DNA of 58,298 nt from an uncultured Candidatus Saccharibacteria bacterium (GTDB lineage Bacteria; Patescibacteriota; Minisyncoccia; Phycocordibacterales; UBA5272): positions 1-58,298 of the forward strand of contig CAZNVC010000004.1 in assembly GCA_964576685.1 (NCBI GenBank). Reading direction: 5' to 3'. The notes below the pieces were generated by a model. It saw nothing but the letters and a program-made list of their open reading frames with translations, ran no database searches and was not told the origin of the DNA. Of the stretch, positions 12,701 through 58,298 are shown piece after piece (position 1 is the stretch's first letter; each line of letters starts with the position of its first letter). The translations under genes and the position numbers were made by a program.

Positions 12701-13280
12701 TCGTCTTACAGGTGTTGGGTCTCTTGCAATTGATAATGTTGAACTCAAGCGTGTACAGATGTATGTGGATCCAACTCAGGTAATCGCATTACAAAATGCT
12801 GGACATGAAATTGCTGCACACACACAAACCCATGTTGCGCTTGCTTCAGTTGCAACATCAACCATGATACAAGAAATTAATGGTTCACGATCTGATCTAC
12901 TTGGAATGGGGGCAACACCAGTTGATACACTCGTGTATCCTTACGGAGATTATAATGATGCGGTGATAGCAGAAGCAAAAAATGCTGGATTTATTGGTGC
13001 TCGTAGTGTGGATCGTGGCTATAATACAAAGACAACTGACAAATATGCTCTTAAGATTCAACAGGTAGGGTCAAGTACAACTCCTGGTGAGATCAAAGCA
13101 TGGATTGATACCGCACTTACACAAAAGACTTGGCTTATTCTCATGTATCATCAAGTTGATACTAGTGGGTTAGATTTAGCACAGACTCCTTCTGACTTTC
13201 AGACAACAGTAGATTACCTTCTCGCTAAAAATGCATGGGTTGTGACGCTCAAAAAAGGAATTACCTTGATGAATCCTTAA
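9771..13280 (+). CDS. Large exported multidomain protein with C-terminal polysaccharide deacetylase (CE4/NodB) domain
   Basis: GTG start and signal peptide ending AVFA. Four NPS[VL]ET...GDAKW[FY] CBM-like modules and three Ig-like modules. NodB motifs LTLDDGW and HTQTH. Confidence 0.8.
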   Translation: MKKNIILTIVFLGIVFSLHTAVFADSSNVISNPSVETVSTTTPSKPYAWSNGKWGTNTTTFSYPVAGYDGAKGVQVTMTAYSGGDAKWFPNDVLVTPGKTYTFSHAYLSTATTSILLRYTSTSNVVSYVTLASTLPPSASWKTDSYNFTVPANIKSVTVFHVLARVGTLSTDLYSIVDPSLIPVDTTSPVVAIVAPASSSTVSGLVTITASSSDNVAVAGVKVYLDNVALGGEMTTAPYTTSWDTTLSSNGQHTLTAVARDTSGNTATSTQGVVVGNVVVIVPPAVGNSILNPSVETVSTTTPSKPYAWSNGKWGTNTTTFSYPVAGYDGAKGVQVTMTAYSGGDAKWFPNDVLVTPGKTYTFSHAYLSTATTSILLRYTSTSNVVSYVTLASTLPPSASWKTDSYNFTVPANIKSVTVFHVLARVGTLSTDLYSIVDPSLIPVDTTSPVVAIVAPASSSTVSGLVTITASSSDNVAVAGVKVYLDNVALGGEMTTAPYTTSWDTTLSSNGQHTLTAVARDTSGNTATSTQGVVVGNVVPDTTSPYVTLLSPLSSSTLSDLVTISASSSDNVGVTGVLFFIDGVQFGTEITTEPYQVTWNTASSTNGTHSIMVFSHDLAGNVATSSVQVVVSNSTTTPPVNLVSNPSLETYGSDGMPIDWLKSSWGTNDATFSYTATSSEGASSGDVTITNYTSGDAKWYFKDILITPLDAYTYSEFYTSNVDTVLTVRYTMTNGSFVYVDIPQPAPASPTWVAYSATITPPLGAVSLTVFHKLAAVGFLGIDSISLIKNNQGPVDPGLFAQGMVSLTLDDGWLSTYSNAVPILNAAGLKGTFGIISQETAQAFPDNRIANPSLETVDTTGTPVDWYVSSWGTNNATSTFPVPGYDGVNAAKVQITEYTDGDAKWYFKDGTVIPNQDYTYSSYYMSDATTTLTVKYTYNDTSVAMVDLDIVGPQAAWTHYLKTIHIPANVYSLTVYHRLTGVGSLAIDNVELKRVQMYVDPTQVIALQNAGHEIAAHTQTHVALASVATSTMIQEINGSRSDLLGMGATPVDTLVYPYGDYNDAVIAEAKNAGFIGARSVDRGYNTKTTDKYALKIQQVGSSTTPGEIKAWIDTALTQKTWLILMYHQVDTSGLDLAQTPSDFQTTVDYLLAKNAWVVTLKKGITLMNP
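9863..11387 (+). repeat. In-frame tandem duplication: 745 bp identical (9863-10607 = 10643-11387), period 780 bp
   Basis: The printed lines at 9901-10560 and 10681-11340 are identical by eye. The duplicate unit is one CBM-like plus one Ig-like module. Confidence 0.95.
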
Positions 13281-24406: not shown

Positions 24407-24865
24407 ATGCTTATTAATATTGCTAAAGCTGAAACAGTAGATCGGCAACCCCGCTTCCTCGAGAAGTATGAAGCGGATAACACTTCTTCTTCGTTTGAAG
24501 CACTTCGTCAGCAAGGTTATAGGTTTTGCATGGGTGTTCGGCCTGGGCGCAGGATTACGGTCGGTTCCATGTGGTTAGAATGGAGACAGCTTGGGACGGT
24601 CATTTTCTTTTTTAAAGATGAAATTCCAGAGGATATGCTTGAACGTCTGAGAGTTGGCAAAAGGAATTTGAATCTGAAAGAAATTCCAACGGTTGAGTAT
24701 AGGAAGTTTTACCACGAAATGTCGAGTGTTGGAAGGTCGTGGTACAAAGCAGTCCTCACTCCGCGTGATGTTAAACAATGGATCAATTTTTTTGAGGCAA
24801 CATCAGCTCAATTTTGTGGAATTGATGTCCTTGTCGACCAAGGACGTTTCCCTTGGAAGGATTAA
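24407..24865 (+). CDS. Hypothetical protein (orphan)
   Basis: 152-aa ORF with its own promoter, Shine-Dalgarno and terminator. No recognisable family. Confidence 0.55.
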   Translation: MLINIAKAETVDRQPRFLEKYEADNTSSSFEALRQQGYRFCMGVRPGRRITVGSMWLEWRQLGTVIFFFKDEIPEDMLERLRVGKRNLNLKEIPTVEYRKFYHEMSSVGRSWYKAVLTPRDVKQWINFFEATSAQFCGIDVLVDQGRFPWKD

Positions 24866-24881
24866 ACACCGCCGAATATGC

Positions 24882-24908
24882 AAAACCGCTTCGGCGGTTT
24901 TGTTTTTT
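24882..24908 (+). terminator. Rho-independent terminator with UUCG tetraloop
   Basis: aaaaccgc-ttcg-gcggtttt followed by gtttttt. Confidence 0.8.
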
Positions 24909-24913
24909 ATGTT

Positions 24914-25071
24914 GCTGGGGTACAAGGACTCGGTCACGAGTCTGCCTCGCTGCGCTCGAAGCAGATTCTCGACCCCGTATTCGAGTCCTTACGCAAGCAA
25001 AGCAGTTTGCTTGCTGTACCCCAAGCTAACACGAAGTGTAAGAACGCTTCGCGTGCAATGAGAATGTGTTA
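24914..25071. repeat. 158-nt structured repeat unit starting with a copy of the tRNA-Gln 3' end (copy A)
   Basis: Begins gctggggtacaaggactcgg (19/20 match to the 3' end of the tRNA-Gln gene). About 92% identical to 28491-28647. Followed by a second gctgggg at 25072. Confidence 0.85.
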
Positions 25072-25152
25072 GCTGGGGCTATGGGACGAAGTTGGAACAA
25101 TTTTGAAGGAAGAGGGTGTTGCTCTTACTTGTTGAACCCATCTGATTTTTGT

Positions 25153-25180
25153 TTGACAATATCCTGTTTAATGCTATAGT
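25153..25180 (+). promoter_or_regulatory. Sigma70-type promoter TTGACA-16-TG.TATAGT
   Basis: -35 at 25153-25158 and -10 at 25175-25180 with a TG extension. Confidence 0.65.
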
Positions 25181-25209
25181 AAAAGTGATAGTCGTTTTAG
25201 GGGAAAAGT

Positions 25210-25425
25210 ATGAATGTTCCACAGGGTGTTGTAAAGCTAGATGTGAGATTACTACAGCTTGTTGATTCTCTAGAAATAGCCTCTATCCTTCTTAGGAGAG
25301 AGGGAAGAGAAGAGGATGCTGTCTCTTTATTTAGATTACGAATAAAAATAAGGGAAGGTCTTTCTTATGAAAATGCTAAACCTATTTTTGATAAACATAC
25401 AAAATCTCTTTTAGGAGAAAAATAA
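25210..25425 (+). CDS. Small hypothetical protein
   Basis: 71-aa ORF with an AGGGGA Shine-Dalgarno. Bidirectional terminator immediately after. Confidence 0.45.
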   Translation: MNVPQGVVKLDVRLLQLVDSLEIASILLRREGREEDAVSLFRLRIKIREGLSYENAKPIFDKHTKSLLGEK

Positions 25426-25449
25426 ACCCGCCTAAACGAAGGCGGGTTT
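25424..25449. terminator. Bidirectional terminator
   Basis: Stem aaacccgcc/ggcgggttt with an 8-nt loop, between convergent ORFs. Confidence 0.75.
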
Positions 25450-25464
25450 CACTGATGGTTCAAC

Positions 25465-25707
25465 CTAGGGTTTGGAAGGATGAGGGTAGCTGATGTACAT
25501 CTCTCTACCGTTCCTGCATCTTGCTACCATACGAACATTACCACGTTCCGATTTGATGACAAGGATTCCTTCCAGTCCTCCGTACTCCTTGCAGACTTCA
25601 AAGGCATCTTCATATTGAGACGCCTTCAGGTAGACCCTCTGTTCCGGTTCCGCTTGAACCGAAAACGAGGTGATGAATCCTGCCAAGAACAAGACGAACA
25701 AGTGCAT
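25465..25707 (-). CDS. Small secreted hypothetical protein
   Basis: Signal peptide MHLFVLFLAGFITSFSVQA and a ~60-aa mature part. Consensus promoter upstream. Confidence 0.5.
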   Translation of the reverse strand: MHLFVLFLAGFITSFSVQAEPEQRVYLKASQYEDAFEVCKEYGGLEGILVIKSERGNVRMVARCRNGREMYISYPHPSKP

Positions 25708-25742
25708 TTGGCAACCTTTTCTTAGGTTAATGAGCGAATTTT

Positions 25743-25770
25743 ATTATATACTGTTTATTTTATTTGTCAA
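25743..25770 (-). promoter_or_regulatory. Consensus promoter TTGACA-16-TATAAT (minus strand)
   Basis: Reverse complement reads TTGACAaataaaataaacagtaTATAAT. Confidence 0.7.
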
Positions 25771-25845
25771 GTTTTAGGATGAGAACGGATACCTATGCAA
25801 GGCTTGACTCGGTCAATACCTTTTCTATTCATGGAATAAAAAATT

Positions 25846-25874
25846 TTGACAAATTCTAATATCTAATTTATAAT
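25846..25874 (+). promoter_or_regulatory. Consensus promoter TTGACA-17-TATAAT
   Basis: Perfect -35 (25846-25851) and -10 (25869-25874) hexamers with a 17-nt spacer. Confidence 0.75.
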
Positions 25875-25931
25875 ATAAAAGATTCTGCTTAAGGCAGAAG
25901 TGTTTTGTAATCACTCTTTTTAGGTATTTTG

Positions 25932-26441
25932 ATGAACAATTCAATGCTGCTGACGCGGTGGGTCATTTGCGCCGAATCGGGTGTGCGACTTGACGAGATC
26001 GACCCTGACGCACCCACGAAGTTGCGCGAATGGCGCCTGAAGTATAGGCTGATCTGTGTGGTCACCCCAAAGGAGTTCCATAAGACTCTCGTGGAGGCGC
26101 TCGACTCTGGTGCGCGCGATGTGCGTGGTGTGAGCCTCATTTCTAGCGCTGACACCAAAGTGGTACTCAGTAATGGGTTCTCTGCCGAGCACACTCGTCG
26201 TCTCCGCTTGCGTACCATGTCGCAAGCGCAATTGCCGGATTTGGCAATTGAGCTCATCCAGCCTGACAATGCTGTTCTGGCTTGTTGGCTGGTAAGCAAG
26301 AGGACTGAAGTGGTAGCGTGTGCCCCTGCGGGTGCTGGCGATGAATGTGCTAGCGAGTACCACGATGCATTTCTCGAGTGGGTGTCGCTGGCCATGGATG
26401 GCGAAGATATTGACCTTCTCGACGAGATCTACGCAGGCTGA
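25932..26441 (+). CDS. Hypothetical acidic protein in a GC-rich segment
   Basis: ORF on the strand that has a promoter and a terminator. Sampled lines are 53-58% GC. No recognisable family. Confidence 0.5.
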   Translation: MNNSMLLTRWVICAESGVRLDEIDPDAPTKLREWRLKYRLICVVTPKEFHKTLVEALDSGARDVRGVSLISSADTKVVLSNGFSAEHTRRLRLRTMSQAQLPDLAIELIQPDNAVLACWLVSKRTEVVACAPAGAGDECASEYHDAFLEWVSLAMDGEDIDLLDEIYAG

Positions 26442-26479
26442 ATAGCTGCCGATACGTGCCCCACACAAGGAAGACCTTC

Positions 26480-26611
26480 ATGAGGAAAACATTTGCCGCT
26501 GTAGGAGTTATTGTAGTCATGCTGGTGTTTCTTAAGCCATGGTACAGTGACGAAAAAGGGGTGTGCATCAATTTCATGGGAGAAATTGGAACGAGAGTTT
26601 GCTCAAAGTAA
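26480..26611 (+). CDS. 43-aa hydrophobic peptide (MRKTFAAVGVIVVMLVFLKPWYSDEKGVCINFMGEIGTRVCSK)
   Basis: Not in the ORF track because it is under 60 aa. AAGGAAG Shine-Dalgarno upstream and one predicted TM. The terminator follows directly. Confidence 0.4.
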   Translation: MRKTFAAVGVIVVMLVFLKPWYSDEKGVCINFMGEIGTRVCSK

Positions 26612-26634
26612 GAGCAATTTCGGTCCACTCCTTG

Positions 26635-26664
26635 AGGCCACATAGACGTGGCCTTTTTCTTTTC
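26635..26664 (+). terminator. Rho-independent terminator
   Basis: Stem aggccac/gtggcct followed by ttttcttttc. Confidence 0.75.
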
Positions 26665-26705
26665 TACAATTGTATGCAGAGAAAGTGATACGAAGTGAAA
26701 CTATT

Positions 26706-27116
26706 TTACAACTCTAAAAATCTTTCTATTTTTTCTCTATCCTCATTACTATAATATGATGAATTTAAGTATGATTGGTTGAACCACTTTTTAACTCCCT
26801 CGATACCTTTGAATACATATGGCATATTTTCCCGGTCGAACGTTTTGCGAAGCCCCTTTATATCTTCAGGGTCCATCTCACCAAAAAGTTTTACAGCATC
26901 GTCTTCTACCTCTTGCTGAGTTCTTTCACTAGGAGGTTCTACTAATATGTAAGATAATGCTGTCCCGTTTTTGTGAGGGAATAACGTTTTAATGAGAATA
27001 TGCTTATTGTCACCAAATACAAGGTGTTCAACCTTTGGTGCCTTATCATGTTGCTCCAAATGCATCTCCTTTGTGATTTCTACCGTTGGTTGTCTTGGTT
27101 TCATCGAGAAGTTCAT
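26706..27116 (-). CDS. Hypothetical protein (orphan)
   Basis: 136-aa ORF with no recognisable family. Confidence 0.45.
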   Translation of the reverse strand: MNFSMKPRQPTVEITKEMHLEQHDKAPKVEHLVFGDNKHILIKTLFPHKNGTALSYILVEPPSERTQQEVEDDAVKLFGEMDPEDIKGLRKTFDRENMPYVFKGIEGVKKWFNQSYLNSSYYSNEDREKIERFLEL

Positions 27117-27298
27117 GTAGAGAGTATATCAGAACATATCATCCTTTTGCACATGAAGTAGCTCATGACCCGGTCAGCTAGTTGGTATTTTATTTCATCA
27201 CTTTACCATCATTCTGCTCTTCTTATTATGTTGCTGGGTCGCGGACGAAGTTGGAACCAATATAGTGAGAGAAAATTAGTTTTAAAAGGAAAGAGTAT

Positions 27299-28045
27299 TT
27301 ATACTAGAATAGGTTTATTTACGTCCAAGTCGCTACTGACTATTCTATAAAGAATCGTAAAGAGTAATAATTCAATAATTGATAGAGTGCTTCCAACCAG
27401 AATCTCAAGCGGACCTGATGCAGGTTTCAAATAAGTTCCTAATAAGTAGTTAAACACAAGGGTGATACAAAAAAGAGTTATTATTTGCCAGTAGTTTCCT
27501 TTTGATAATTCCCAACTAATTTTAAAGGAATCTTTTATAGTGGCAGTATTTTTTTCAACAATATAAAAAAGAGAAAAAAGGAGGCGTGGTGTTATTGTAA
27601 TAGTAAGAACAAAACCGATAATTAGAAATATCATCCCGCCGTATAACATACTAGTTGCTATTATATTTGGCCCACTGTCAGCAGCAAACATTGAAAGAAA
27701 AACTGACATACTACTAATGTAAAGAATTGCTCCAGGTAGACTAAATAATAGTAGGCAAATAGCAACAAAACGAAGTATTAATTTATAATTGAAAACTTTA
27801 ACTAGACTTTCTTTGGTCCTAAAAACACCACTAACTACATCAAGAGAAATCGAAAAAAGACTCAACGCTACAATAATTGTAATTGTAAGATCTAAAAAAA
27901 TACCGACCCCCTTTAAACTAAAAATAGTATTAATAGTCTTGATAAGAGATAAAAATAAAACGAGTACTACAAATATTTTAAATTCTCTTTTAAAAATCTG
28001 CCAAAAGGTTTTGAATACTCTAAGTAATTTTGATTCTGTCTGCAT
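27299..28045 (-). CDS. Multi-pass membrane protein (hypothetical)
   Basis: Five or six hydrophobic helices. ATG at 28045 lies 8 nt after a TACAAT box (28054-28059, minus strand). The longer ORF-track start runs into a repeat. Confidence 0.55.
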   Translation of the reverse strand: MQTESKLLRVFKTFWQIFKREFKIFVVLVLFLSLIKTINTIFSLKGVGIFLDLTITIIVALSLFSISLDVVSGVFRTKESLVKVFNYKLILRFVAICLLLFSLPGAILYISSMSVFLSMFAADSGPNIIATSMLYGGMIFLIIGFVLTITITPRLLFSLFYIVEKNTATIKDSFKISWELSKGNYWQIITLFCITLVFNYLLGTYLKPASGPLEILVGSTLSIIELLLFTILYRIVSSDLDVNKPILV

Positions 28046-28093
28046 ATTTTTTGATTGTACGTTTTTAAAGTATAACACCATTACTGAATTTAA

Positions 28094-28250
28094 TTGAGGC
28101 ACAAGGGCTCGTTCACAAAACTTCTCGTTGTAAACTCCTCGAAGCAGATTCCCGACCCGTATTCGAGCCCTTACAAAAGTGACGCAGTTTGCTTGCTGTA
28201 CCCCAAGCTAACACAGCAAAAGAAGTGCGCTTCGCACGCGATAAAAATAA
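28094..28250. repeat. Degenerate copy (B) of the tRNA-Gln-derived repeat unit
   Basis: The segments cacaagggctcg...tcgaagcagattc...cgtattcgag.ccttac...cagtttgcttgctgtaccccaagctaacac align with copies A and C. Confidence 0.7.
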
Positions 28251-28268
28251 GGTCTCGGTCATTACTTT

Positions 28269-28503
28269 GGTATTTTGTTTCGTAACCTTGTTACTCACAA
28301 AACACTCAAAGTTTTGACCTAAAGAAACGTCGACAAAATTATGAAAATGAAAGTCATGGGGACAACTTTCATTTTTATAATTTTGTAGACCGACGTTTCG
28401 CTTCGAGCCCTGCGCAATGAGCATTTAGCTCATTGCTTGTACCCCAGCAAATGTAAAAATACGCTTCATTTGAAGCGTATTTTTACATTTGCTGGGGTAC
28501 AAG
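28269..28503. other. Conserved multi-hairpin element E2 (candidate structured RNA or recombination site), homologous to 58025-58255
   Basis: Shared blocks ggt.tttt.tttc.taac.t.ttact.acaaaacactc, cctaaagaaa.gtcgacaaaa and tagaccgac.tttcgcttcga. Three hairpins lie at equivalent positions. Confidence 0.7.
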
Positions 28504-28647
28504 GGCTCGGTCACAAATCTGCCTCACTTCGTTCGAAGCAGATTCGCTACCCCGTATTCGAGTCCTTACGCAAGCAAAGCAGTTTGCTTGCTGTACCCCA
28601 AGCTAACACGAAGTGTAAGAACGCTTCGCGTGCAATGAGATGTGTTA
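28491..28647. repeat. 157-nt structured repeat unit (copy C) directly abutting the tRNA-Gln 3' end
   Basis: Starts with gctggggtacaagggctcg, a 19-nt exact copy of 28648-28666. Confidence 0.85.
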
Positions 28648-28648
28648 G

Positions 28649-28719
28649 CTGGGGTACAAGGGCTCGAACCTCGATTAACGGTGCCAGAAACCGTTGTCCT
28701 ACCATTAGACGATACCCCA
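28649..28719 (-). tRNA. tRNA-Gln (anticodon CUG), no encoded CCA
   Basis: Hand-folded cloverleaf: acceptor UGGGGUA/UACCCCA, D stem GUCU/GGAC, anticodon stem ACGGU/ACCGU with loop UUCUGGC, T arm CGAGG-UUCGAGC-CCUUG, discriminator G. Close to E. coli tRNA-Gln. Confidence 0.9.
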
Positions 28720-28852
28720 ATCGGATAGCTAGTAGCTTTTAGACTTTAGCCATTAGCTTTTTAATTCACTCAAGTACGTTATCGAATCTTTATTGTCCTT
28801 CGTACTCAGGACCGCTATATTCTACCGCTTCACGTTGTTATACTTTGCTGCT

Positions 28853-31713: not shown

Positions 31714-32730
31714 ATGAATACTTTTTTAAAAACAAACAATAAAAGTAAAGGGACTCACGGAGCACCGTCTAGCATGATATATAAAGTGCTTAATGGGGTA
31801 ATGGTCTGTGCGCTCCTCTTCACTTATTTTTGGTATATTCCTCACCAAGACAAGCGTGTGGATGTTGTAACAAGAAATCCTTTTCTTAACCCAGCCCTTG
31901 CTGTACTAGATAAAGATAACTTGATTGTTAATTTCCAAGGACTTCGTGATTCGCTCACCTCTACTTACGAAAATCGTGATGATTATCTTGTTTCTATTTA
32001 TTTTGAGTATCTTCCTACCGGCGCCAATATTGCTGTCAACAAAGATGAAAAAATCTGGCCCGCAAGTCTTATTAAGATCCCTGTAGCGATGGCAATTATG
32101 AAAAAGGTACAGGAAAAAAAGTGGAAGCTTTCAAATGAGCTTGTAATTCTTGATCAGGACAAGGATAGTGAATACGGTGCGATGTATAAAGAGCCAACAG
32201 GAACAACCCACACGATTAAAACATTTTTGGAAGAGACGCTCATTAATTCTGATAACACTGCTCATTTCGTTTTGCTCCGCAATTTAGACGGTGATGAGCT
32301 TGAGGATGTGTATATTCACCTTGGTATGGATGACATTATTGACGCTCTTAAGAAATCGCCTACGAAAGAAGCTGAAATTGATAACCGTATTACTGCGAAA
32401 CGATATTCAATTTTCTTTAGGTCGCTCTATAACGCAACATACCTTACCCAAGAGTATTCTCAACTCTTTTTATCTATTTTAGAAAAGGCTCCCCGTGAAT
32501 TATTAAGTAGAGGAATTCCTGATGGGGTTTCATTTGTTCATAAAACAGGAATCCGTATCGATGAAGGTGTGCGAGCTGATTCAGGTATTGTCTATATACC
32601 TGGTCGACCTTACATTCTGACAGTTATGGTACAGCAAAAAAAGAAAGGGAAACTTGATGAGGAGGATATCAATAAAATATTTGAAGCTATTTCGAAAGAA
32701 GTCTATACTTATGTTGCCAATGCTCATTAA
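31714..32730 (+). CDS. Membrane-anchored serine hydrolase with class A beta-lactamase/PBP fold
   Basis: SxxK (ASLIK), SDN (NSDNT) and KTG (HKTG) motifs in canonical order. N-terminal TM. Confidence 0.75.
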   Translation: MNTFLKTNNKSKGTHGAPSSMIYKVLNGVMVCALLFTYFWYIPHQDKRVDVVTRNPFLNPALAVLDKDNLIVNFQGLRDSLTSTYENRDDYLVSIYFEYLPTGANIAVNKDEKIWPASLIKIPVAMAIMKKVQEKKWKLSNELVILDQDKDSEYGAMYKEPTGTTHTIKTFLEETLINSDNTAHFVLLRNLDGDELEDVYIHLGMDDIIDALKKSPTKEAEIDNRITAKRYSIFFRSLYNATYLTQEYSQLFLSILEKAPRELLSRGIPDGVSFVHKTGIRIDEGVRADSGIVYIPGRPYILTVMVQQKKKGKLDEEDINKIFEAISKEVYTYVANAH

Positions 32731-35700
32731 AAAAACATCAATTATTTTTTTGATCATCACTTTATTTTTTTCTGGATTTGATCCTGCTGGTTTCGTATTC
32801 TTGTTTGAAAATATTGCAAAAAATTCCTCTTCAGGAATCGTTGACGCAGTGTATTTAGCAGGAAAGAACAAAAATGTTGTTGATAGTTTTTTTGCAAAAA
32901 AGGATATTGCTCACGCAGCAATCAATACTGCAGAAAAGGAATATGCTATTGATATCGGTCCTGTGAATGGTTCAACGACAGCAAACTACGTATATACTTC
33001 ATTTTTTAACCCGGGAAGTTCTGGCCGCACGGCATATATTAAGCGTATTGCAATTCGTGCTAATACTGCATCCTCTACGGCTTCAAACTACGTTAACCTT
33101 ACTGTTCGTCGTATCACCACAGCATCTGCAGGGACACAAATATCGGCTACGAATTTTCCACAAAAAAATGCAAGCTCATCTAACTCCGTCATGGAAGTAC
33201 GGTATGGTGGGGTGGCAGTAACCTTGTCTGGTACAGTTGATTCGAGAATCATAGGGCAACCGCTTTCGGGTGCTGTTGGGTCATATTATAGTAAGAGAGA
33301 TATTACTTTTGCGAGTGGGGACGAGAAACTGATTCTCCAGCCAGGAGAAGGAATAGCGGTGTATCAAGAAACAGCAGGAACACTTTCAACAAAAGTGCGA
33401 GTACTTATTGAGTGGGATGAAACAGCAACACCCCCCACAGGTGGTGGAGAATTTTTATTTACATTTCCGAGGGTTGAAGTTGCCGCAACATCAAGTTCTG
33501 TGTATAACTCATTCTTTAATCCTTCCGGTTCAGGGAAGACTGCTGTAATACGGCGTATTTGGTTTGGCTCGGAAACATGTGATACTACCGCGGTGTATAC
33601 GAATAATCTGGTTCTCAAAAGAACGACAGCCGCCTCGGGAGGGACGGCAATTAGTGCTTCAAATATTCCAAAGAAAAATACAAGTAGTAGCAATAGTGCT
33701 ATGGAGTTTAGACACACTAATGTCACCGTCTCAACTGTTGGAGGGACGGACGCACGCATCGGACATGTTACTCCATGTGGGACCACTGCTCAAGCTCATG
33801 GTTGGCAGGAAATAAATTTTGATCAAAATGATGAAGAGTTGATTCTTCAGCAAGGTGAGGGTATAGCATTAATCTCAGAAGGAACCGGGGATGTGGATCA
33901 GCTTGTACGCATGATTATTGAATGGGACGAGGTTTCTTCCGCAAGCACTCCATCATCACAAGGGGAGTACATTTGGGCTTCTGATAAAGTCGCCTCATCT
34001 ACGCTTGCAAACACTACATTGTATTCTTTCTTTAACCCTACAGGTTCAGGGAAAACTGCAGTGATTAAACGTTTAGCAATACGCGCAAATGCTACAACGA
34101 CTGCTGCATATACTTCATTTCAATTTCGTCGCATCACTACAGCTTCTGGGGGGACGCTTATCACTGCAACTGATTTACCCAAGAAACATACAGGAACGTC
34201 AGACAGTATCATGGAAGCCAGATGGTGTCTTAGGGGGTGTAATTCAACTATTTCTGCAACGTATGTAGGGACTTCTGATGGGAAGCTGCTCTCTGTTACT
34301 GGTGCAGGTGCGGTAGCCCAAACAATAGGACAGCGTGAGATAGTTTTTGGTGCAAATGAAAAAATTATTTTACAGCCAGGTGAAGGGATAGCTCTCTATA
34401 ATGATGTTCTTACTTCGAGTGCTGCAGAGTCGGTAAAAATTGTTATTGAATGGGGGGAGCAGGCATCAACTCCGACATCGCAAGGAGAATATCTTATGGA
34501 TATTGGTCCAATTAACGGGAGTACTGCAACGACTTATAATTATATTTCATTCTTTAATCCTGCTTCATCTGGGCAAAATGCTGTTTTTAGGAGAATTGGT
34601 ATTCGAGTGGATGCGGTTGCAGCTGCTGTGTATGTGCCAATACAAATACGACGTATCACCTCTTCTTCCGGTGGTACCGTGATCGCCTCCTCTACATATC
34701 CCAAGAAACACACAGGAACAGCTACAAGTAGCATGGAAATACGTACTACTGGGGTGACTGTAGTGTATGCAGGAGCTACAACTTCGGCAATGTTGGGTAT
34801 ACAAACACCAGGAGCAGTTGCTTCTGCTGCCGCAGGGAATACAGGATATAAGGAAATCGAATTTAACGACAGTGAACCCCTCGTCCTTAAACCAGGCGAA
34901 GGGATTGTTCTCTATCAAACACCAACAGCGGGTGATGCAGATTTTCGTGTTCGATTACTAGTCGAGTGGGCAGAACAATCCACAGCACCTACCGCTCTTG
35001 GTGAATTTCTTATGATGATTGGACCAGTAAACCAGTCATTGACTGCGGGATATGTGTATGCGACATTATTTAATCCGCTTACTTCAGCAAAGAATTTTAT
35101 TTTGAGGCGTATTGGAATGCAGGTTGATAGAAGTGGTGCGGCAACTAATCCGGCGTATATCCCTGTCGCAATCAGACGTATTATTACAGCTTCAGGAGGA
35201 ACACTAGTTGCTACAACAAGTGTGCTCAAGAATACAGGCTCTTCTTCATCGACCGCAGAAGTTCGTTCTACAGGGGTCACAGCCACAATGGTGGGAGCTA
35301 CAGAATCTCGTCTTGTTGCTGGGACAATGCCTGGGGCAGTGAATCAAATATTTGGTGACAGTGAAAGTGAAATTACCTCAGGTGATGAGCTTGTGCTTGC
35401 GCCTGGGCAAGGTGTTGCTCTTTATCAAGAGCAGGCAACTGGTGATGCCAATGTTCGATATCGTTTTGCGGTCGAGTGGGCTGAAACAAGCACCTCCTCG
35501 CAAGCCCAATCACTTACCTTCTCCGTTTCTACTTCAACTATTTATTTTGGGGTTGTTTCTCCGGTGCTCGCTCGCTATGCATCGAGTACTAGTACAGGAG
35601 GAAGTGATACAGAAGTGGAAGCACATACCTTTAGTGTTATTACCAATGCTGCAAATGGATATACAGTTACCACTAGAGGGGCAACACTCACCTCCGCGTC

Positions 35701-35992
35701 TGGAACTATTGCAGCAATTGGAGCAGCAAATACAGCTTCAGCGACAGGGACTGAACAATTTGGTATTCGTATAACAGCAAGTGGTGGATCTGGAACAACT
35801 ACGACCCCGTACGCAGAAAGTGGTTTTGCATTTGCTGCGACAGCGACAACCTCTTCTCAGGTGGCAAGTGCCTCTGTTGGAGATAATGCTACAACAACGT
35901 TCTCAGTTCGTTATATTGCAAATGTGGCTCCAACTACACCTGCTGCGTCATATTCTACAAATATTATTTTCGTTGCGACTGCAAATTTTTAA
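32711..35992 (+). CDS. Giant exported protein: five ~172-aa tandem repeats plus a C-terminal WxL-like domain (CscC-like)
   Basis: Signal/TM MLPMLIKKTSIIFLIITLFF. FFNP motif at ORF-track aa 117, 287, 459, 633 and 805. Each repeat ends ..IEW[DGA]E. The C-terminus ends FVATANF. Start 32711 or 32720 overlaps the upstream stop. Confidence 0.75.
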   Translation: MLPMLIKKTSIIFLIITLFFSGFDPAGFVFLFENIAKNSSSGIVDAVYLAGKNKNVVDSFFAKKDIAHAAINTAEKEYAIDIGPVNGSTTANYVYTSFFNPGSSGRTAYIKRIAIRANTASSTASNYVNLTVRRITTASAGTQISATNFPQKNASSSNSVMEVRYGGVAVTLSGTVDSRIIGQPLSGAVGSYYSKRDITFASGDEKLILQPGEGIAVYQETAGTLSTKVRVLIEWDETATPPTGGGEFLFTFPRVEVAATSSSVYNSFFNPSGSGKTAVIRRIWFGSETCDTTAVYTNNLVLKRTTAASGGTAISASNIPKKNTSSSNSAMEFRHTNVTVSTVGGTDARIGHVTPCGTTAQAHGWQEINFDQNDEELILQQGEGIALISEGTGDVDQLVRMIIEWDEVSSASTPSSQGEYIWASDKVASSTLANTTLYSFFNPTGSGKTAVIKRLAIRANATTTAAYTSFQFRRITTASGGTLITATDLPKKHTGTSDSIMEARWCLRGCNSTISATYVGTSDGKLLSVTGAGAVAQTIGQREIVFGANEKIILQPGEGIALYNDVLTSSAAESVKIVIEWGEQASTPTSQGEYLMDIGPINGSTATTYNYISFFNPASSGQNAVFRRIGIRVDAVAAAVYVPIQIRRITSSSGGTVIASSTYPKKHTGTATSSMEIRTTGVTVVYAGATTSAMLGIQTPGAVASAAAGNTGYKEIEFNDSEPLVLKPGEGIVLYQTPTAGDADFRVRLLVEWAEQSTAPTALGEFLMMIGPVNQSLTAGYVYATLFNPLTSAKNFILRRIGMQVDRSGAATNPAYIPVAIRRIITASGGTLVATTSVLKNTGSSSSTAEVRSTGVTATMVGATESRLVAGTMPGAVNQIFGDSESEITSGDELVLAPGQGVALYQEQATGDANVRYRFAVEWAETSTSSQAQSLTFSVSTSTIYFGVVSPVLARYASSTSTGGSDTEVEAHTFSVITNAANGYTVTTRGATLTSASGTIAAIGAANTASATGTEQFGIRITASGGSGTTTTPYAESGFAFAATATTSSQVASASVGDNATTTFSVRYIANVAPTTPAASYSTNIIFVATANF

Positions 35993-36153: not shown

Positions 36154-37242
36154 ATGTCACCTAAAAATTTTATAATCCCTTGCGTCAGTACCATTATTAT
36201 TGGAATCGTTCTTGTTACTCTTATTGGTCAGGCAGAGAAAGTGTATGCGCTAGCACTCACAACACTTTCAGATACTCAATCTTCGCTTAAGGTTAACACG
36301 CTTTCAGATCATACAATTCAGTTTGTAACGCAGTCGGGAATTGGAGCAGGGGAGGGATTTAGCATCACGTTTCCTTTCGGATATTCTTTGGATACTTTTT
36401 CTGTTAATAACTTTGATATGGCAACAAGTACTTCGGCTACTTGTTCTGGTTTTTCTGATGCTCTTCTGGCTTCCGGGGCTGCTTCTGGTCTCACATGGGG
36501 AGTCACACAGGGGACATCTTCTGTGTATTTCACATCAGGTACCGCCACAATTCCAGCCAATCGCTGTATACAAGTAAGAATCGGTTCAAATGCCATCTCA
36601 CAGGCCTCAGGAACAATGGTGATCACAAATCCTGTAGCATCAGGACAAAATGTGATTAGTATTTCGAGTGATCTTGGAGATTCAGGTATTATCACAGAAC
36701 ATATCATTGATAATGACACTGTTTCAATGACGGGGACAATTTCTCAGGCGCTAACTTTTAGTATTTCAACTACCACACTCTACTTTGGTACCCTTAATTC
36801 AGTCGGAGCTAAGTTCGCTTCTTCTACCAACCCTTCAGGAGACACAATAGAAACGGTTGCTCACACGCTTTCTGTTAATACTAACGCACCGTCTGGATTT
36901 ACTATCTCGGTACGAGGTCAGACACTTACCTCACAACAGAATTCAGCCAACACAATTAGTGTAATAGGAGCAACGGCAGCATCTTCAACACCAGGTACGG
37001 AGCAGTTTGGTCTAAGAGCAACTGAATCAGGGGGTATAGGGACGGCAGTAAGTTCCCCGTTTAATTCTGCAACCTCATATGGATATGCTGCAACCGCGAC
37101 AACATCAGAAATCTTAGCAACAGGAAGTGGATCCACCCCAACATCTATTTACTCGCTTAGCTATGTTGTTAACATTGCTGCGGTTACTGAGGCAGGTATT
37201 TATGCTGCTGACCTCGTGTATACTGCTACTGCTAACTTCTAA
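36154..37242 (+). CDS. Exported two-domain surface protein, paralog 1 (WxL-like C-terminal domain, CscB-like)
   Basis: Signal peptide ending VYA. Mature N-terminus LALTTLSDTQSSL. C-terminal domain from 36745 with LYFGTL, SGFTIS and the end YTATANF. Confidence 0.75.
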   Translation: MSPKNFIIPCVSTIIIGIVLVTLIGQAEKVYALALTTLSDTQSSLKVNTLSDHTIQFVTQSGIGAGEGFSITFPFGYSLDTFSVNNFDMATSTSATCSGFSDALLASGAASGLTWGVTQGTSSVYFTSGTATIPANRCIQVRIGSNAISQASGTMVITNPVASGQNVISISSDLGDSGIITEHIIDNDTVSMTGTISQALTFSISTTTLYFGTLNSVGAKFASSTNPSGDTIETVAHTLSVNTNAPSGFTISVRGQTLTSQQNSANTISVIGATAASSTPGTEQFGLRATESGGIGTAVSSPFNSATSYGYAATATTSEILATGSGSTPTSIYSLSYVVNIAAVTEAGIYAADLVYTATANF

Positions 37243-37361
37243 ATATAAGTACAATTTTTTGATTTCAAGTATTATCCACTTCAAAAAGTCTTAATTATCA
37301 TGCTACAATGATGAAAACGTACAACAAGCGAATGTTTTTTGCTTGAGTTGTACAGTAAGCT

Positions 37362-38462
37362 ATGTCACCTAAACAACTTCTCATTCCCGTTATAAATTAT
37401 CTTATCATCGGGGTAGTAATCATCACGAGTGTGGTTCAGGTAAAAATTGCCTACGCAGCTGCCCTTACTACACTCTCCGATACCCAGTCAACGCTTACTG
37501 CCGGAGCCCTCTCGGACCACACTATTCAGTTCGTCACCCCAACTGGTATCGCTGCAGGACAAGGAATAGCAATTACATTCCCTGCATATCCAACAGGATA
37601 CGCTACAGGAACGTTCGCTATTGCTAACTTCGACTTCGCTACCAGTACCTCAGCTACTTGTTCTGGTTTCACAGACGCTCTACTTGCTGCTGGTGCAGCT
37701 TCCGGACTCACATGGGGCGTCACACAAGGTGCATCTTCCACAATTTACATCACTTCTGGTACTGCAGTAGTTCCTGCTAACCGTTGTGTGCAGATTAGAA
37801 TCGGTTCTAACGCTATTTCTCAAGCTTCAGGAACTGCACAGATAACTAACCCAACCTCAGCTACTACTACCGCGATTAATATTACAAGTTCGTTCGGAGA
37901 TAATGGTTCTATTATGCAGAATATTATTACTAGTGACACTGTTTCTGTGAGTGCGACTGTCCAACAGTCAATTTCTTTCGTTATTTCAACTACCACCATC
38001 TATTTCGGTGCCCTCTCTTCAACAGGTCCTAAATTTGCTTCTTCTACCAACTCTTTAGGTGATGCTGCAGAAACCATTGCTCACACCTTACAAGTCACCA
38101 CCAACGCTCCTTCTGGCTACACTATCTCTATACGTGGTCAGACTCTCACTTCACAACAGAACTCCGCTAACACTATTACTGCAATCGGTGCTTCGGTTGC
38201 CTCTTCTTCACTTGGTACAGAACAGTTCGGTATACGTGCTACTTCTACCGGTGGGACAGGGGCGACAATAGATACAACATTTGGGGCCCTTACTTCGTAT
38301 GGGTATGATGCCACAGCGACCACGTCAGCTACGTTTGCTACCGGAAGTGGTGCAACGAACCAAACCACTTTTGGTCTTCGTTATGTTGCAAACATCGCAG
38401 GAACAACAGAGGCAGGTACATATGTTGCGAGTATTGTCTACGTTGCTACAGCGAATTATTAG
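37362..38462 (+). CDS. Exported two-domain surface protein, paralog 2
   Basis: Signal peptide ending AYA. Mature N-terminus AALTTLSDTQSTL. C-terminal domain from 37965 with IYFGAL, SGYTIS and the end YVATANY. Confidence 0.75.
   Translation: MSPKQLLIPVINYLIIGVVIITSVVQVKIAYAAALTTLSDTQSTLTAGALSDHTIQFVTPTGIAAGQGIAITFPAYPTGYATGTFAIANFDFATSTSATCSGFTDALLAAGAASGLTWGVTQGASSTIYITSGTAVVPANRCVQIRIGSNAISQASGTAQITNPTSATTTAINITSSFGDNGSIMQNIITSDTVSVSATVQQSISFVISTTTIYFGALSSTGPKFASSTNSLGDAAETIAHTLQVTTNAPSGYTISIRGQTLTSQQNSANTITAIGASVASSSLGTEQFGIRATSTGGTGATIDTTFGALTSYGYDATATTSATFATGSGATNQTTFGLRYVANIAGTTEAGTYVASIVYVATANY
37501..37861 (+). repeat. 361-bp block 100% identical to 38711-39071
   Basis: Base-for-base identity by eye across the printed lines. 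The flanks diverge on both sides. Confidence 0.95.
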
Positions 38463-38571
38463 CGGAATTCCTTACAATTACACCTTATCCACACTATTTT
38501 GATTATAAAAGTGGTAAACTTACCATCGTAAGATGTAGAAATCTTCAGTTTATTAGTAAAATATACATTTT

Positions 38572-39672
38572 ATGTTTAAAAAGAACCTCTTAACTTCTAT
38601 CACTAGCATTTTTGTTGCTGGTGTTATTTTTTTCGCCTCATTTGCTCAGATTGAACTAGCGTTTGCTGCCGCTCTCACCACGCTCTCTGACACCCAATCA
38701 ACTCTAGCAGCCGGAGCCCTCTCGGACCACACTATTCAGTTCGTCACCCCAACTGGTATCGCTGCAGGACAAGGAATAGCAATTACATTCCCTGCATATC
38801 CAACAGGATACGCTACAGGAACGTTCGCTATTGCTAACTTCGACTTCGCTACCAGTACCTCAGCTACTTGTTCTGGTTTCACAGACGCTCTACTTGCTGC
38901 TGGTGCAGCTTCCGGACTCACATGGGGCGTCACACAAGGTGCATCTTCCACAATTTACATCACTTCTGGTACTGCAGTAGTTCCTGCTAACCGTTGTGTG
39001 CAGATTAGAATCGGTTCTAACGCTATTTCTCAAGCTTCAGGAACTGCACAGATAACTAACCCAACCTCAGCAACAAGTACCTCAATCACCATTACCAGTT
39101 CGTTTGGAGATAGTGGTTCGATTACAGAGAACATTATTACCAATGATACTGTGGCGATGACAGGACAAGTTAATCAATCAATATCTTTCTCGATTTCTAC
39201 AACAACCATCTATTTCGGAACCCTCAGTTCTACTGGTGCTAAATACGCATCATCAACAAACATTTCTGGCGACAGTACAGAGACCGTTGCTCACACTGTT
39301 ACCGTGAACACAAACGCACCTTCCGGTTTCACTGTTTCTGTCCGTGGCGCAACCCTTACCTCACAGCAGAACTCCGCTAACACCATTACTCAAATCGGTG
39401 CGACCGCTGCTTCTTCCACTACTGGTACAGAACAGTTCGGTATTCGAGCAACAGAAACAGGAGGAACTGGTACATCGATTTCAGATCCATTTAAATGGAC
39501 TACATCATACGGATACCAAGCAACTGCAACAACATCAGCAGTACTTGAGACAGGAAGTGGGTCGACATCCAACTCAACAACTTCTATTCGTTACCTTGCT
39601 AACATTGCATCAATTACTGAAGCGGGTACCTATGCTGCAAGTCTCACATACGTTGCAACTGCTAACTTCTAA
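38572..39672 (+). CDS. Exported two-domain surface protein, paralog 3
   Basis: Signal peptide ending AFA. Mature N-terminus AALTTLSDTQSTL. C-terminal domain from 39175 with IYFGTL, SGFTVS and the end YVATANF. Confidence 0.75.
   Translation: MFKKNLLTSITSIFVAGVIFFASFAQIELAFAAALTTLSDTQSTLAAGALSDHTIQFVTPTGIAAGQGIAITFPAYPTGYATGTFAIANFDFATSTSATCSGFTDALLAAGAASGLTWGVTQGASSTIYITSGTAVVPANRCVQIRIGSNAISQASGTAQITNPTSATSTSITITSSFGDSGSITENIITNDTVAMTGQVNQSISFSISTTTIYFGTLSSTGAKYASSTNISGDSTETVAHTVTVNTNAPSGFTVSVRGATLTSQQNSANTITQIGATAASSTTGTEQFGIRATETGGTGTSISDPFKWTTSYGYQATATTSAVLETGSGSTSNSTTSIRYLANIASITEAGTYAASLTYVATANF
38711..39071 (+). repeat. 361-bp block 100% identical to 37501-37861
   Basis: See the partner feature. 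Confidence 0.95.
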
Positions 39673-57902: not shown

Positions 57903-58024
57903 AGCACTCCTTTCGGTTAGAACAAATTGTTTTTATGATATAACTATTTTAAAGGTTTGTCAATTTATGTGTAAGTGAGTTCAAGAAATAATCGCAACAC
58001 TTTGGAAGAATCGGCGATTGTTAA

Positions 58025-58255
58025 GGTGTTTTATTTCATAACTTCGTTACTTACAAAACACTCTTAACTTTCGCCTAAAGAAATGTCGACAAAAATGAGA
58101 AGTAAAAATACTTCACCCAATTTTTACTTCTCATTTTCGTAGACCGACATTTCGCTTCGATTCTCACGTCTGTGCTCTTAAGCACAGACTCTAGGGTCCA
58201 CAGATACAAAAATCCGAACCAGTCTGGTTCGGATTTTTGTATCTGTGGACCCTAG
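58025..58255. other. Conserved multi-hairpin element E1, immediately 3' of tRNA-Ala (homolog of 28269-28503)
   Basis: Hairpins at 58081-58152, 58168-58189 and 58191-58255. The last hairpin includes the final 10 nt of the tRNA. Confidence 0.7.
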
Positions 58256-58298
58256 GAGAATCGAACTCCTCACCTCCGGAGTGCAAAACCGGCGCTCT
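58246..58298 (-). tRNA. tRNA-Ala (anticodon UGC), 3' part only (5' end beyond the window), no encoded CCA
   Basis: The reverse complement reads AGAGCGCCGGUUUUGCACUCCGGAGGUGAGGAGUUCGAUUCUCCUAGGGUCCA. T arm AGGAG-UUCGAUU-CUCCU, U70 compatible with G3:U70, collinear with E. coli tRNA-Ala. Confidence 0.8.

Follow-up and report, generated by a model that had tools for sequence, protein, structure and literature searches.

In a 58,298-nt stretch (positions 1-58,298, forward strand) of contig CAZNVC010000004.1 (assembly GCA_964576685.1) of an uncultured Candidatus Saccharibacteria bacterium, which was analysed at full length and is referred to below as the window, we identified two copies of a ~250-nt, protein-less and highly folded insertion that we named H. 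H is a discrete, repeat-flanked insertion that restores the tRNA behind which it lies, and its fold is kept by compensatory change, i.e., it is under selection. It is not catalogued in anything that we searched, and its kin are integrative cassettes specific for tRNA ends. The best explanation we can offer, which we hold to be quite possible though short of probable, is that H is a non-autonomous mobile module of the candidate phyla radiation (CPR; Patescibacteria), specific for tRNA 3' ends, with a folded single strand as the recombination substrate. The genomes of CPR bacteria are tiny, and little is understood of the ways in which genes are gained and shuffled in them; the loci described here show recurrent, precise stacking of small gene cassettes behind undisrupted tRNA genes, marked by an uncatalogued folded module. 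Even on the most conservative reading, H is a new family of structured elements that is supported by covariation and has been missed by annotation pipelines.

Anatomy of H and its flanking repeats

Read on the strand of the tRNA, an H unit starts directly after the discriminator base with a terminator-like palindrome, which is followed in order by a 10-nt complement of tRNA positions ~64-73 (arm 2a), hairpin B, an 8-nt complement of positions 56-63 (arm 2b), a three-way junction made of helix P0, hairpin A and the P1 domain, and a direct repeat of positions 56-73. P0 closes the junction and is made by pairing between the 8-nt arm and the initial 8 nt of the distal repeat (0-3 mismatches per copy). 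Hairpin C consists of the tRNA tail paired across the palindrome with the 10-nt arm, and it arises from the exact reverse complement of the tRNA end that lies within the element. Copy 2 lies behind a partial tRNA at the end of the window that we read as tRNA-Ala(UGC) from its anticodon loop and from an identical, complete tRNA-Ala(tgc) in another locus (L006). Here the end of tRNA-Ala (GATTCTCCTAGGGTCCA) is followed by the palindrome, TGGACCCTAG, hairpin B, GAGAATCG, AAGCGAAAUG, hairpin A, P1 and CGATTCTTCCAAAGTG; joined, TGGACCCTAG and GAGAATCG form an exact reverse complement to the last 18 nt of tRNA-Ala, which hairpin B splits 10 + 8. Copy 1 shows the same layout fitted to tRNA-Gln (GCTGGGGTACAAG, hairpin B, AGGGCTCG), and in other copies hairpin B occupies the same site and is semi-conserved, being of the GTAACAGTGC-TAAA-GCACTGTTAC type. 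In every copy the inner portion of hairpin C is built of an A-tract, an 8-bp GC-rich stem and a T-tract; a simple terminator scan made no call on it because the T-tract sits inside the extended stem, and from its sequence we infer that the palindrome would act as a terminator.

That H is inserted is seen in fresh copies, namely the H copy in L006 and a copy of a shorter relative, U (described below), in L014. In L006, ~270 bp lie between perfect 17-nt direct repeats (TGGACCCTAGGAGAATC as printed, GATTCTCCTAGGGTCCA on the tRNA strand), with a second, displaced terminator behind the distal one. The U element after tRNA-Arg in L014 (2806-2965, minus strand) has a perfect 19-nt repeat (GATTCCACGCGAGGGCACA) and a displaced terminator likewise. 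In these two copies the identity to the tRNA runs from T-loop position 56 or 57, after the universal GTTC, to 1-3 nt past the discriminator.

A first-pass annotation of the window, made by reading the DNA without database searches, had proposed a conserved multi-hairpin element in two copies (28269-28503 and 58025-58255) sharing three sequence blocks. We found both copies at these positions, with a mean column identity of 79% and exact blocks between unlike hairpins; the three blocks are exact in both copies and absent elsewhere in the window, and for two of the three there were 0 chance matches per 100 shuffles. The strings CCTAAAGAAAYGTCGACAAAA and TAGACCGACRTTTCGCTTCGA occur twice each in the window and in 0 of 100 shuffles, and the block-1 pattern has an extra match with 1 mismatch at 27184-27201, a count of at least 3 matches being seen in 0/100 shuffles. 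The truncated third copy suspected at 27184-27210 proved to be a 30-nt remnant. Also present as described were, in hairpin A, the C:G to T:A change of the outer stem and a 4-nt bulge (AGAC on the plus strand, GUCU on the tRNA strand), as well as hairpin B in both copies and hairpin C as a 30-33-bp perfect stem. Two details had to be amended. The inner stem of hairpin A, which had been called entirely different in the two copies, has a tip that is semi-conserved in two types across the family, and the remainder shows ordinary compensatory substitutions. The tRNA 3' end forms the outer end of hairpin C in copy 2, while copy 1 abuts a 19-nt copy of the tRNA-Gln tail and not the gene. Absent from that annotation were the discrete insertion, the direct repeats of the tRNA end, the complement of the tRNA tail, the tRNA-sense folded strand, the modularity and the cargo arrays.

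Relatives, conserved fold and modular variants

Scans with exact patterns found copies in Saccharibacteria metagenome-assembled genomes (MAGs; L001, L003), Paceibacterota MAGs (L004, L012, L013/L014) and metagenome contigs (L005-L008, L010); L002, L009 and L011 were rejected as chance matches of these scans. A covariance model built from 13 cores aligned on the tRNA strand, a search that the first-pass annotation had proposed, gave strong matches (73-179 bits) to 18 copies in 12 sources of Saccharibacteria or Paceibacterota DNA, other CPR genomes and metagenomes among them, plus weaker or shorter variants; in the window it matched the two copies only. All ten copies with an adjacent tRNA (Gln, Ala, Gly, Ser or His) lie downstream of it on the same strand, and in nine of them the model match begins 72-87 nt past the tRNA end: at Ala (window, L006), Gly (L003, L004, L008, L010), Ser (L012) and His (L005, L014). 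The tenth is window copy 1, which is 235 nt from tRNA-Gln with a U element intervening. The copies in L001, L007 and L013 lie away from any intact tRNA; the tRNA-Gln in L169 and many other tRNAs of the same loci carry no element. In each of the ten loci the arms complement the tail of their own tRNA, perfectly or with 1-2 mismatches (the 10-nt arm in L004 is decayed), and copies are found at several tRNA species (six or more in one count), each matched to its own tRNA.

Both strands of both window copies fold with z = -17 to -19 against shuffles, ~80 kcal/mol better than shuffled sequence, and the tRNA-sense strand folds better than the opposite strand by 4.6-10.9 kcal/mol. RNAalifold applied to a MAFFT alignment recovered the 9-bp lower stem of hairpin A, the 4-nt GUCU bulge, the ~21-bp upper stem and the nested P1, with compensatory changes in 27/49 pairs. 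In the 18-copy alignment 94.6% of cells are paired (75.6% when shuffled) and 31/49 pairs show double changes, comprising 17/30 pairs in hairpin A (helices 1 and 2) and 14/19 in P1 (helices 3-6); the covariation score is 0.505 versus 0.164 shuffled (reached in 0/500 shuffles) and ≤0.106 for slid structures. Because the 18-copy alignment was fitted to the model its pairing is somewhat inflated, and the MAFFT-based result is independent and agrees. The lower stem, seemingly invariant, covaries too among more distant copies. The further copies, and covariation well above the shuffled and slid controls, support the proposal that H is a selected RNA or single-stranded DNA structure and not a recent repeat.

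Two base pairs are kept as G:U (in 14/18 and 9/18 copies), where the other strand would give A.C, and these conserved pairs point to the tRNA-sense (minus) strand as the folded one. Over the alignment there are 50 G.T cells versus 14 A.C cells, or 27 versus 14 minus those two columns, the cells not being independent of one another. Hairpin A of L007 is that of window copy 2 except for one G:C to A:U swap, although the P1 domains are quite different. L003 and L010 differ over 1869 nt by 9 scattered substitutions and one 9-nt indel, and additionally, at L003 1488-1502 (compared with L010 on the minus strand), by 9 differences clustered within a 15-nt segment of the inner stem of hairpin C, all compensatory, with three base pairs swapped; this cluster resembles the outcome of conversion or template switching, or else a hypervariable spot.

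The shorter relative U (~140-160 nt) has three copies behind the tRNA-Gln of the window (repeat ranges 24903-25063, 28095-28215 and 28480-28640), and its homologue in L014 belongs to a Paceibacterota MAG. The layout is like that of H, with a palindrome, a tRNA-tail complement, a hairpin, P0, a short core and a repeat. In the U copy next to tRNA-Gln, which is the most recent insertion at this gene, the order on the tRNA strand is palindrome, TGGGGTACA (complement of the acceptor 3' strand), hairpin, AAGGACTCG, a 49-nt core and the repeat at 28491-28509. U and H are alike just inside P0 on both sides (AAGCGAAWACG... and ...UGAC), and U has a single small hairpin between. The tRNA-Gln tail occurs in four copies in the window (24911, 28090, 28488 and 28645) that bound and subdivide the island behind this gene, and the original tRNA-Gln terminator is now at ~24870-24905; given the four tails and three U copies, the region 24916-28647 is a stack of successive insertions (Table 1). 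A third variant keeps P1 and has hairpin A replaced (L001 363-500; L005 4170-4271, after tRNA-Val). The P1 subtypes GGUCAUUACUUUGG, GGCGAUUGUUAAGG and GGUCACCGCUACGG are combined non-congruently with the hairpin A tip types and the target arms, e.g., one P1 subtype is found at Gln, Ala and Gly, and two P1 subtypes are found among Ala-targeting copies. The elements are therefore mosaics that arose by repeated recombination of modules, with exchange of arms between tRNA targets.

Table 1. Features of the two H copies and of the tRNA-Gln island in the window
Feature	Positions	Strand	Description
tRNA-Gln(CTG)	28648..28719	-	Last ~19 nt, CGAGCCCTTGTACCCCAGC (minus strand), is the repeated target; ARAGORN; Rfam tRNA, 57.5 bits
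Composite island after tRNA-Gln	24916..28647	-	Three U copies, copy 1, a remnant and orphan cargo open reading frames; repeat families D5, D8, D13, D14, D17
U element, 138 bp	28510..28647	-	Short relative of H between copy 1 and tRNA-Gln; repeat families D5/D8/D13/D17
Direct copy of tRNA-Gln 3' end, 19 nt	28491..28509	-	Distal repeat of U, proximal repeat (DR1) of copy 1 and outer 3' arm of hairpin C; D13
Copy 1 terminator-like palindrome	28449..28490	-	A-tract, 8-bp GC-rich stem, T-tract; inner part of hairpin C; from sequence and folds
Copy 1 arm 2a	28436..28448	-	GCTGGGGTACAAG on minus strand, exact complement of tRNA ~64-73(+2)
Copy 1 hairpin B	28414..28436	-	9-bp stem, 5-nt loop; between the two halves of the tRNA complement
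Copy 1 arm 2b (P0 5' strand)	28404..28411	-	AGGGCUCG on minus strand; complement of tRNA 56-63
Copy 1 hairpin A (PA)	28324..28399	-	Conserved 9-bp lower stem, GUCU bulge, G:U pair; variable ~20-bp upper stem; 10-nt loop
Copy 1 P1 domain	28257..28319	-	Branched hairpin GGUCA...UGACC with nested helices
Copy 1 distal repeat remnant	28247..28257	-	CGAGACCTTAT versus tRNA CGAGCCCTTGT; first 8 nt are the P0 3' strand
Third-copy remnant	27184..27213	-	3' half of P1 domain only; decayed copy in the older part of the tRNA-Gln island; repeat family D19
tRNA 3' part, read as tRNA-Ala(UGC)	58246..58298	-	Last 18 nt serve copy 2 as target and proximal repeat; Rfam tRNA, 32 bits, partial
Copy 2 terminator-like palindrome, 45 nt	58201..58245	-	A-tract, GC-rich stem, T-tract; inner part of hairpin C
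Copy 2 arm 2a	58191-58200	-	UGGACCCUAG on minus strand
Copy 2 hairpin B	58168-58189	-	From sequence and folds
Copy 2 arm 2b	58158-58165	-	GAGAAUCG on minus strand
Copy 2 core	58013..58153	-	172 bits; hairpin A 58080-58153; P1 58013-58075, GGCGA...UCGCC subtype
Copy 2 distal repeat remnant	57998..58013	-	CGATTCTTCCAAAGTG versus tRNA CGATTCTCCTAGGGTC; decayed tail copy

Proposed mechanism, alternatives and known systems

As a mobile module, H would travel as its tRNA-sense single strand, probably circularized and more likely as DNA than as RNA. In the circular form its sole repeat would pair with the split complement and so build a duplex replica of the target that hairpin B interrupts and that lies against the conserved junction, which would be bound by protein. 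A trans-acting enzyme would then exchange strands within the T-loop, right after the universal GTTC; one such exchange at the T-loop boundary would leave the target at both ends of the insertion, and the palindrome and inverted arm directly inward of the proximal junction, which is exactly the arrangement seen. Insertion would restore the tRNA, supply it with a new terminator, and shift the old 3' end and its terminator to the far side. The complement would be a built-in target mimic or guide, and swapping it would retarget the module to another tRNA. We favour a role at the DNA level because a terminator-like hairpin precedes the core, which on the tRNA strand sits between this hairpin and the old terminator with no consistent promoter. 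The arm for tRNA-Ala also makes us lean to DNA, since it holds GGACCCU, the Watson-Crick complement of the 3' strand, and not GGGCCCU, which is the tRNA's own G:U-forming 5' strand (L006). A broader proposal, which we think rather unlikely to hold in full, is that H, U and their relatives are a new class of protein-less, self-addressed mobile modules in which an exact 18-nt complement, split around a protein-binding hairpin, serves the folded single strand (DNA or RNA) as guide or target mimic, a trans-acting enzyme inserts the module and any downstream genes it has captured precisely behind the tRNA, and an 18-nt change suffices for retargeting. If true, CPR bacteria would have a naturally programmable integration system and an integron-like platform for gene capture built on tRNA genes; and if the complement sets the insertion site, a compact nucleic-acid-addressed mechanism would join group II introns, CRISPR-associated transposons, IS110 bridge RNAs and IS200/IS605 guides.

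Several findings weigh against a mobile module of this kind. The junctions between distal repeat and cargo vary (after position 63, 66, 68, 71 or 73), and imprecise joining fits them better than a strictly site-specific reaction would. Contigs of the same species (L179, L180) are arranged identically, and we saw no pair of empty and occupied alleles and no excised circle. A search for presence/absence polymorphism among same-species contigs found an identical arrangement wherever the region was spanned, several contigs ending at the repeats, and a test for an empty site by synteny, anchored on acetate kinase, found relatives that were 35-58% identical and not syntenic, none with H. Older copies keep P0 at 7-8/8 matches and the acceptor part of the distal repeat at only ~3/10; since P0 and the core outlast the repeats, a resident copy may serve an RNA function and not mobility, and the wobble pairs and three-way junction are typical of RNA. 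GC skew suggests, weakly, that the plus strand is the leading strand, in which case the tRNA-sense strand would serve as leading-strand template and be single-stranded less often; the idea that it becomes exposed during lagging-strand synthesis was rejected on the grounds that the skew points the opposite way. We identified no enzyme for the movement of H, and the neighbouring open reading frames (ORFs) of the window, L005, L006, L008, L010 and L013/L014 encode no recombinase, integrase, transposase, HUH or reverse transcriptase domain, the rest of the genomes not having been searched.

The RNA-typical features would be accounted for if H were a structured noncoding RNA gene that acts as RNA and is merely carried by a mobile cassette, an explanation that we consider unlikely but take seriously. 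The RNA would be made in tRNA sense by read-through from the tRNA promoter, with its 5' end coming from tRNA 3' processing behind the discriminator base and its 3' end being an acceptor-like helix of arm 2a and the distal repeat, and its 18-nt antisense to the tRNA tail could target the tRNA or its precursor, or could guide a protein that acts in trans. RNA-like covariation, the conserved G:U pairs, the three-way junction and conserved single-stranded linkers (AAGCGAAAC) agree with such a gene, as do old copies in which the repeats have decayed and the core and P0 are kept. The unit boundaries are also tRNA 3'-processing sites, the tRNA genes encode no CCA, and a homologue of the CCA-adding enzyme is present in L010. 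However, a terminator-like hairpin stands between tRNA and core and no consistent promoter was found, and in L003, L004, L008 and both window copies decay affects arm 2a and the acceptor portion of the distal repeat, so that a closed tRNA-like RNA is not maintained; nor would an RNA gene alone explain the direct repeats, the tandem arrays and the match of the arm to each new tRNA.

Three other explanations are less likely than an RNA-level function because of the points against each. H could be the decayed att region of tyrosine-integrase islands or prophages at tRNA genes, resembling cis-mobilizable elements (CIMEs), with the integrase lost, mobilization in trans, and the hairpins being arm-type sites plus a terminator. 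Repeats from the T-loop to the tRNA end, restoration of the tRNA and tandem accretion are typical of integrase tRNA islands and CIMEs, and H loci have 17-19-bp repeats of this extent, restored tRNAs and tandem accretion at one tRNA; other repeat-flanked cassettes also occur at CPR tRNA 3' ends, such as the putative GIY-YIG cassette in L169 (see below). We nevertheless judge this origin improbable. The inspected neighbourhoods hold no integrase (a helper could lie elsewhere in the genome), and the whole element is as small as ~270 bp between perfect repeats in L006. Strand-specific covarying helices with conserved wobbles are not expected of double-stranded arm sites, the same core lineage is found at several tRNAs whereas integrases usually keep to a single target, the sequence on the element's side of the crossover (…AATGAC|C) is unlike the T-stem half-site of the tRNA, and searches of phages, plasmids and IMG/VR gave no copy. 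Saccharibacteria are competent for DNA uptake, and if these particular lineages are so too, passive spread by uptake (homology-facilitated illegitimate recombination), with the tRNA gene as homology anchor, the repeat as far-side microhomology and H as a hitch-hiking terminator or insulator whose palindromes are kept perfect by template-switch correction of quasi-palindromes, would suit the variable cargo/repeat junctions, the mosaic modules and the clustered compensatory differences between L003 and L010, which look like a signature of conversion or template switching. This route cannot shift a module between tRNA species together with a matching new complement, and it leaves the conserved bulge, wobble pairs and three-way junction unexplained, as palindrome correction would erase them; we give it little credence. 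Least of all do we believe that H is an elaborate tRNA trailer, i.e., a native, immobile signal for 3' processing and termination: its position downstream of a tRNA on the same strand and its terminator-like hairpin would fit, but this reading is contradicted by the direct repeats with a second displaced terminator behind them (L006, L014) and by arrays of up to 4 tandem copies after one tRNA, and there are copies away from any intact tRNA (L001, L007, L013) and many tRNAs without the element.

The first-pass annotation could not assign H to a known RNA family, and Rfam 15 agreed: in the window only tRNA passes the gathering score, and permissive scans of 24800-28800, L005 6300-6900 and L014 2700-3100 gave only hairpin look-alikes far below threshold, e.g., plant and animal microRNA models. 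Blastn searches against phages and plasmids found nothing, nor did a strict gapped pattern in IMG/VR; a 16-mer had 34 matches in IMG/VR, all rejected by the covariance model, and in genome contigs it was unspecific (at least 120 stretches, almost all of those listed being from unrelated phyla). A full-text literature search found no description of such an element. The possibility that the copies are ends of a known mobile element was set aside because we found no described mobile element to match.

Like an integron attC site, H would be a recombination site defined by the fold of one specific strand and not by sequence, with an imperfect hairpin, an off-strand feature and a variable tip, and its strand-specific fold is indeed conserved in structure and variable in sequence; like integron cassettes, its units build up head-to-tail at one chromosomal entry, with orphan cargo and no recombinase gene in the cassette. 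However, H has no R-box (GTTRRRY) and no RYYYAAC...GTTRRRY core boxes, the foot of its hairpin (P0) is tRNA T-loop/T-stem sequence that depends on the target (CGATTCTC, CGAGCCCT, CAAATCCC or CGAATCTC), and its arrays enter at a tRNA 3' end and not at attI, with no IntI in the flanking ORFs inspected. At ~250 nt it also has an extra three-way junction and lies tRNA-proximal (5') to its cargo, whose ORFs have their own promoters. The attP(+) site of CTX-phi, used by XerCD, is likewise a folded single strand in which two inverted segments rebuild a target-like duplex, and the topology of the integrated product is the same, with the target at both ends and the loop and inverted arm inside one junction; the target of H is a tRNA 3' end and not dif, there are many targets each with a matching arm, and the element is 0.16-0.27 kb, non-coding and free of filamentous-phage genes. 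IS200/IS605 elements (IS608, ISDra2) act strand-specifically, have subterminal hairpins without terminal inverted repeats, read their target through base pairing with a short guide in their own DNA, beside the foot of a hairpin bound by protein, and insert 3' of the sequence so read. H is analogous in layout: arm 2a, hairpin B and arm 2b could be viewed as an enlarged guide-plus-hairpin, with insertion right after the 18 nt. The guide of H would be 18 nt as opposed to 4-5 nt, however, and H ends with a target copy and so appears repeat-flanked; the neighbouring ORFs include no TnpA(Y1), TnpB or corresponding Pfam match, and there is no similarity in sequence or in Rfam.

CIMEs and tRNA islands resemble H in that the tRNA 3' segment is directly repeated, the tRNA is restored, units accrete in tandem and a non-autonomous element depends on a helper; H is unlike them in being tiny, in its strand-specific covarying fold, in its internal inverted target copy and in having the same core at many tRNAs. 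The bridge (seek) RNA of IS110/IS1111 is also a structured non-coding module of ~150-250 nt with split target-matching segments and a hairpin between, but its guides occupy two internal loops, of which the consensus fold of H has none, and each pairs to opposite strands of both target and donor, whereas the two halves in H complement one strand contiguously, with no donor loop and no adjacent DEDD or serine recombinase. A group II intron, retron or other retroelement RNA was rejected (no Rfam match, no reverse transcriptase domain in the neighbours, only ~250 nt), as was a miniature inverted-repeat transposable element, since the ends of H (terminator palindrome versus ...GUAAUGAC) are not inverted repeats and its repeat is 17-19 nt of a specific gene. 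Retrons, bridge RNA, T-box, split tRNA, tRNA-primed retroelements and H/ACA-like guides were further discarded on one or more of the following: no reverse transcriptase or recombinase, wrong loops, a complement without CCA, and a terminator before the core. By these analogies H seems to work either as a recombination site formed by a folded strand or as an insertion element that guides itself, yet it fails the defining tests of every family that we considered.

Arrays, cargo and neighbouring sequences

Copies of H stack in arrays that alternate with cargo genes. Behind tRNA-His in L005 come, in order, H, a 398-aa ORF, H, three ORFs that include a D-Ala-D-Ala ligase and a nucleotidyltransferase, H, and more ORFs, all on the tRNA strand; in the contiguous L014/L013, four H copies lie within 4 kb after tRNA-His, with one or two small ORFs behind each. 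In the window, tRNA-Gln is followed in succession by copy 1, a U remnant, a 248/267-aa membrane ORF, an H remnant and a 136-aa ORF, and behind copy 2 there is a sigma-70-like promoter (TTGACA, 17 nt, TATCAT) and then a 123-aa ORF. The cargo had no Pfam identity of note, no PADLOC defence match and no meaningful PHROG match, and a homologue of the 123-aa protein (70% identical) lies in an unrelated context that has neither H nor a tRNA.

Several public assemblies of the same species break at U or H repeats (contig ends of L178, L182, L183 and L185); one break is 38 nt past a 152-aa gene, at the start of a U repeat, and one is inside an H core. As H and U fragment assemblies in this way, they will be under-reported.

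We noted an extended -10-like motif, TGnTATACT, ahead of cargo ORFs in the window (27123-27131 and ~28060-28070, both minus strand) and in L005 (6800-6817, 8372-8381 and 10879-10887), where it is fused to a conserved GGTTGGAAC. The gap between motif and start codon is 6-12 nt in L005 and for the window ORF at 27116, and ~22 nt for that at 28044; judged by this spacing, most such cargo mRNAs would be leaderless or nearly so. A recurrent motif, GACGAAGTTGGAAC or GGTTCCAACTTCG, marks cassette boundaries at window 25085-25098 and 27244-27257 (plus strand), L012 ~3400 and L186 4574-4590, and it adjoins acceptor-like remnants of tRNA tails, e.g., ...GTTCCAACTTCGTCCCATAGCCCCA. In the His arrays a different pseudo-tail (GTTCTAATCCCGTCTACGACAGTACA) takes the same role, and these boundary motifs and pseudo-tails may be surrogate ends of gene-carrying cassettes. 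In a Zambryskiibacteria MAG (L169, 591-1140), a ~470-bp cassette after tRNA-Gln(CTG) has a 13-nt tRNA-tail repeat (CCAAGTCTCGCAG) on both sides and an ORF that, from a reading of its translation, encodes a putative GIY-YIG nuclease; tRNA 3' ends are therefore a general entry point for cassettes in CPR.

Elsewhere in the window, a GC-rich 170-aa ORF without a Pfam match (25929-26441) lies inside the AT-rich tRNA-Gln island, consistent with foreign origin. Outside the island we observed a 300-nt perfect internal repeat (9863-10162 and 10643-10942) in a 1169-aa ORF (9771-13280), five ~170-aa repeats in a 1112-aa ORF (32654-35992), and three tandem paralogous genes of ~365 aa at 36154-39672 that are 74-93% identical over repeated segments; the repeat-bearing ORFs of these three regions probably encode surface proteins.

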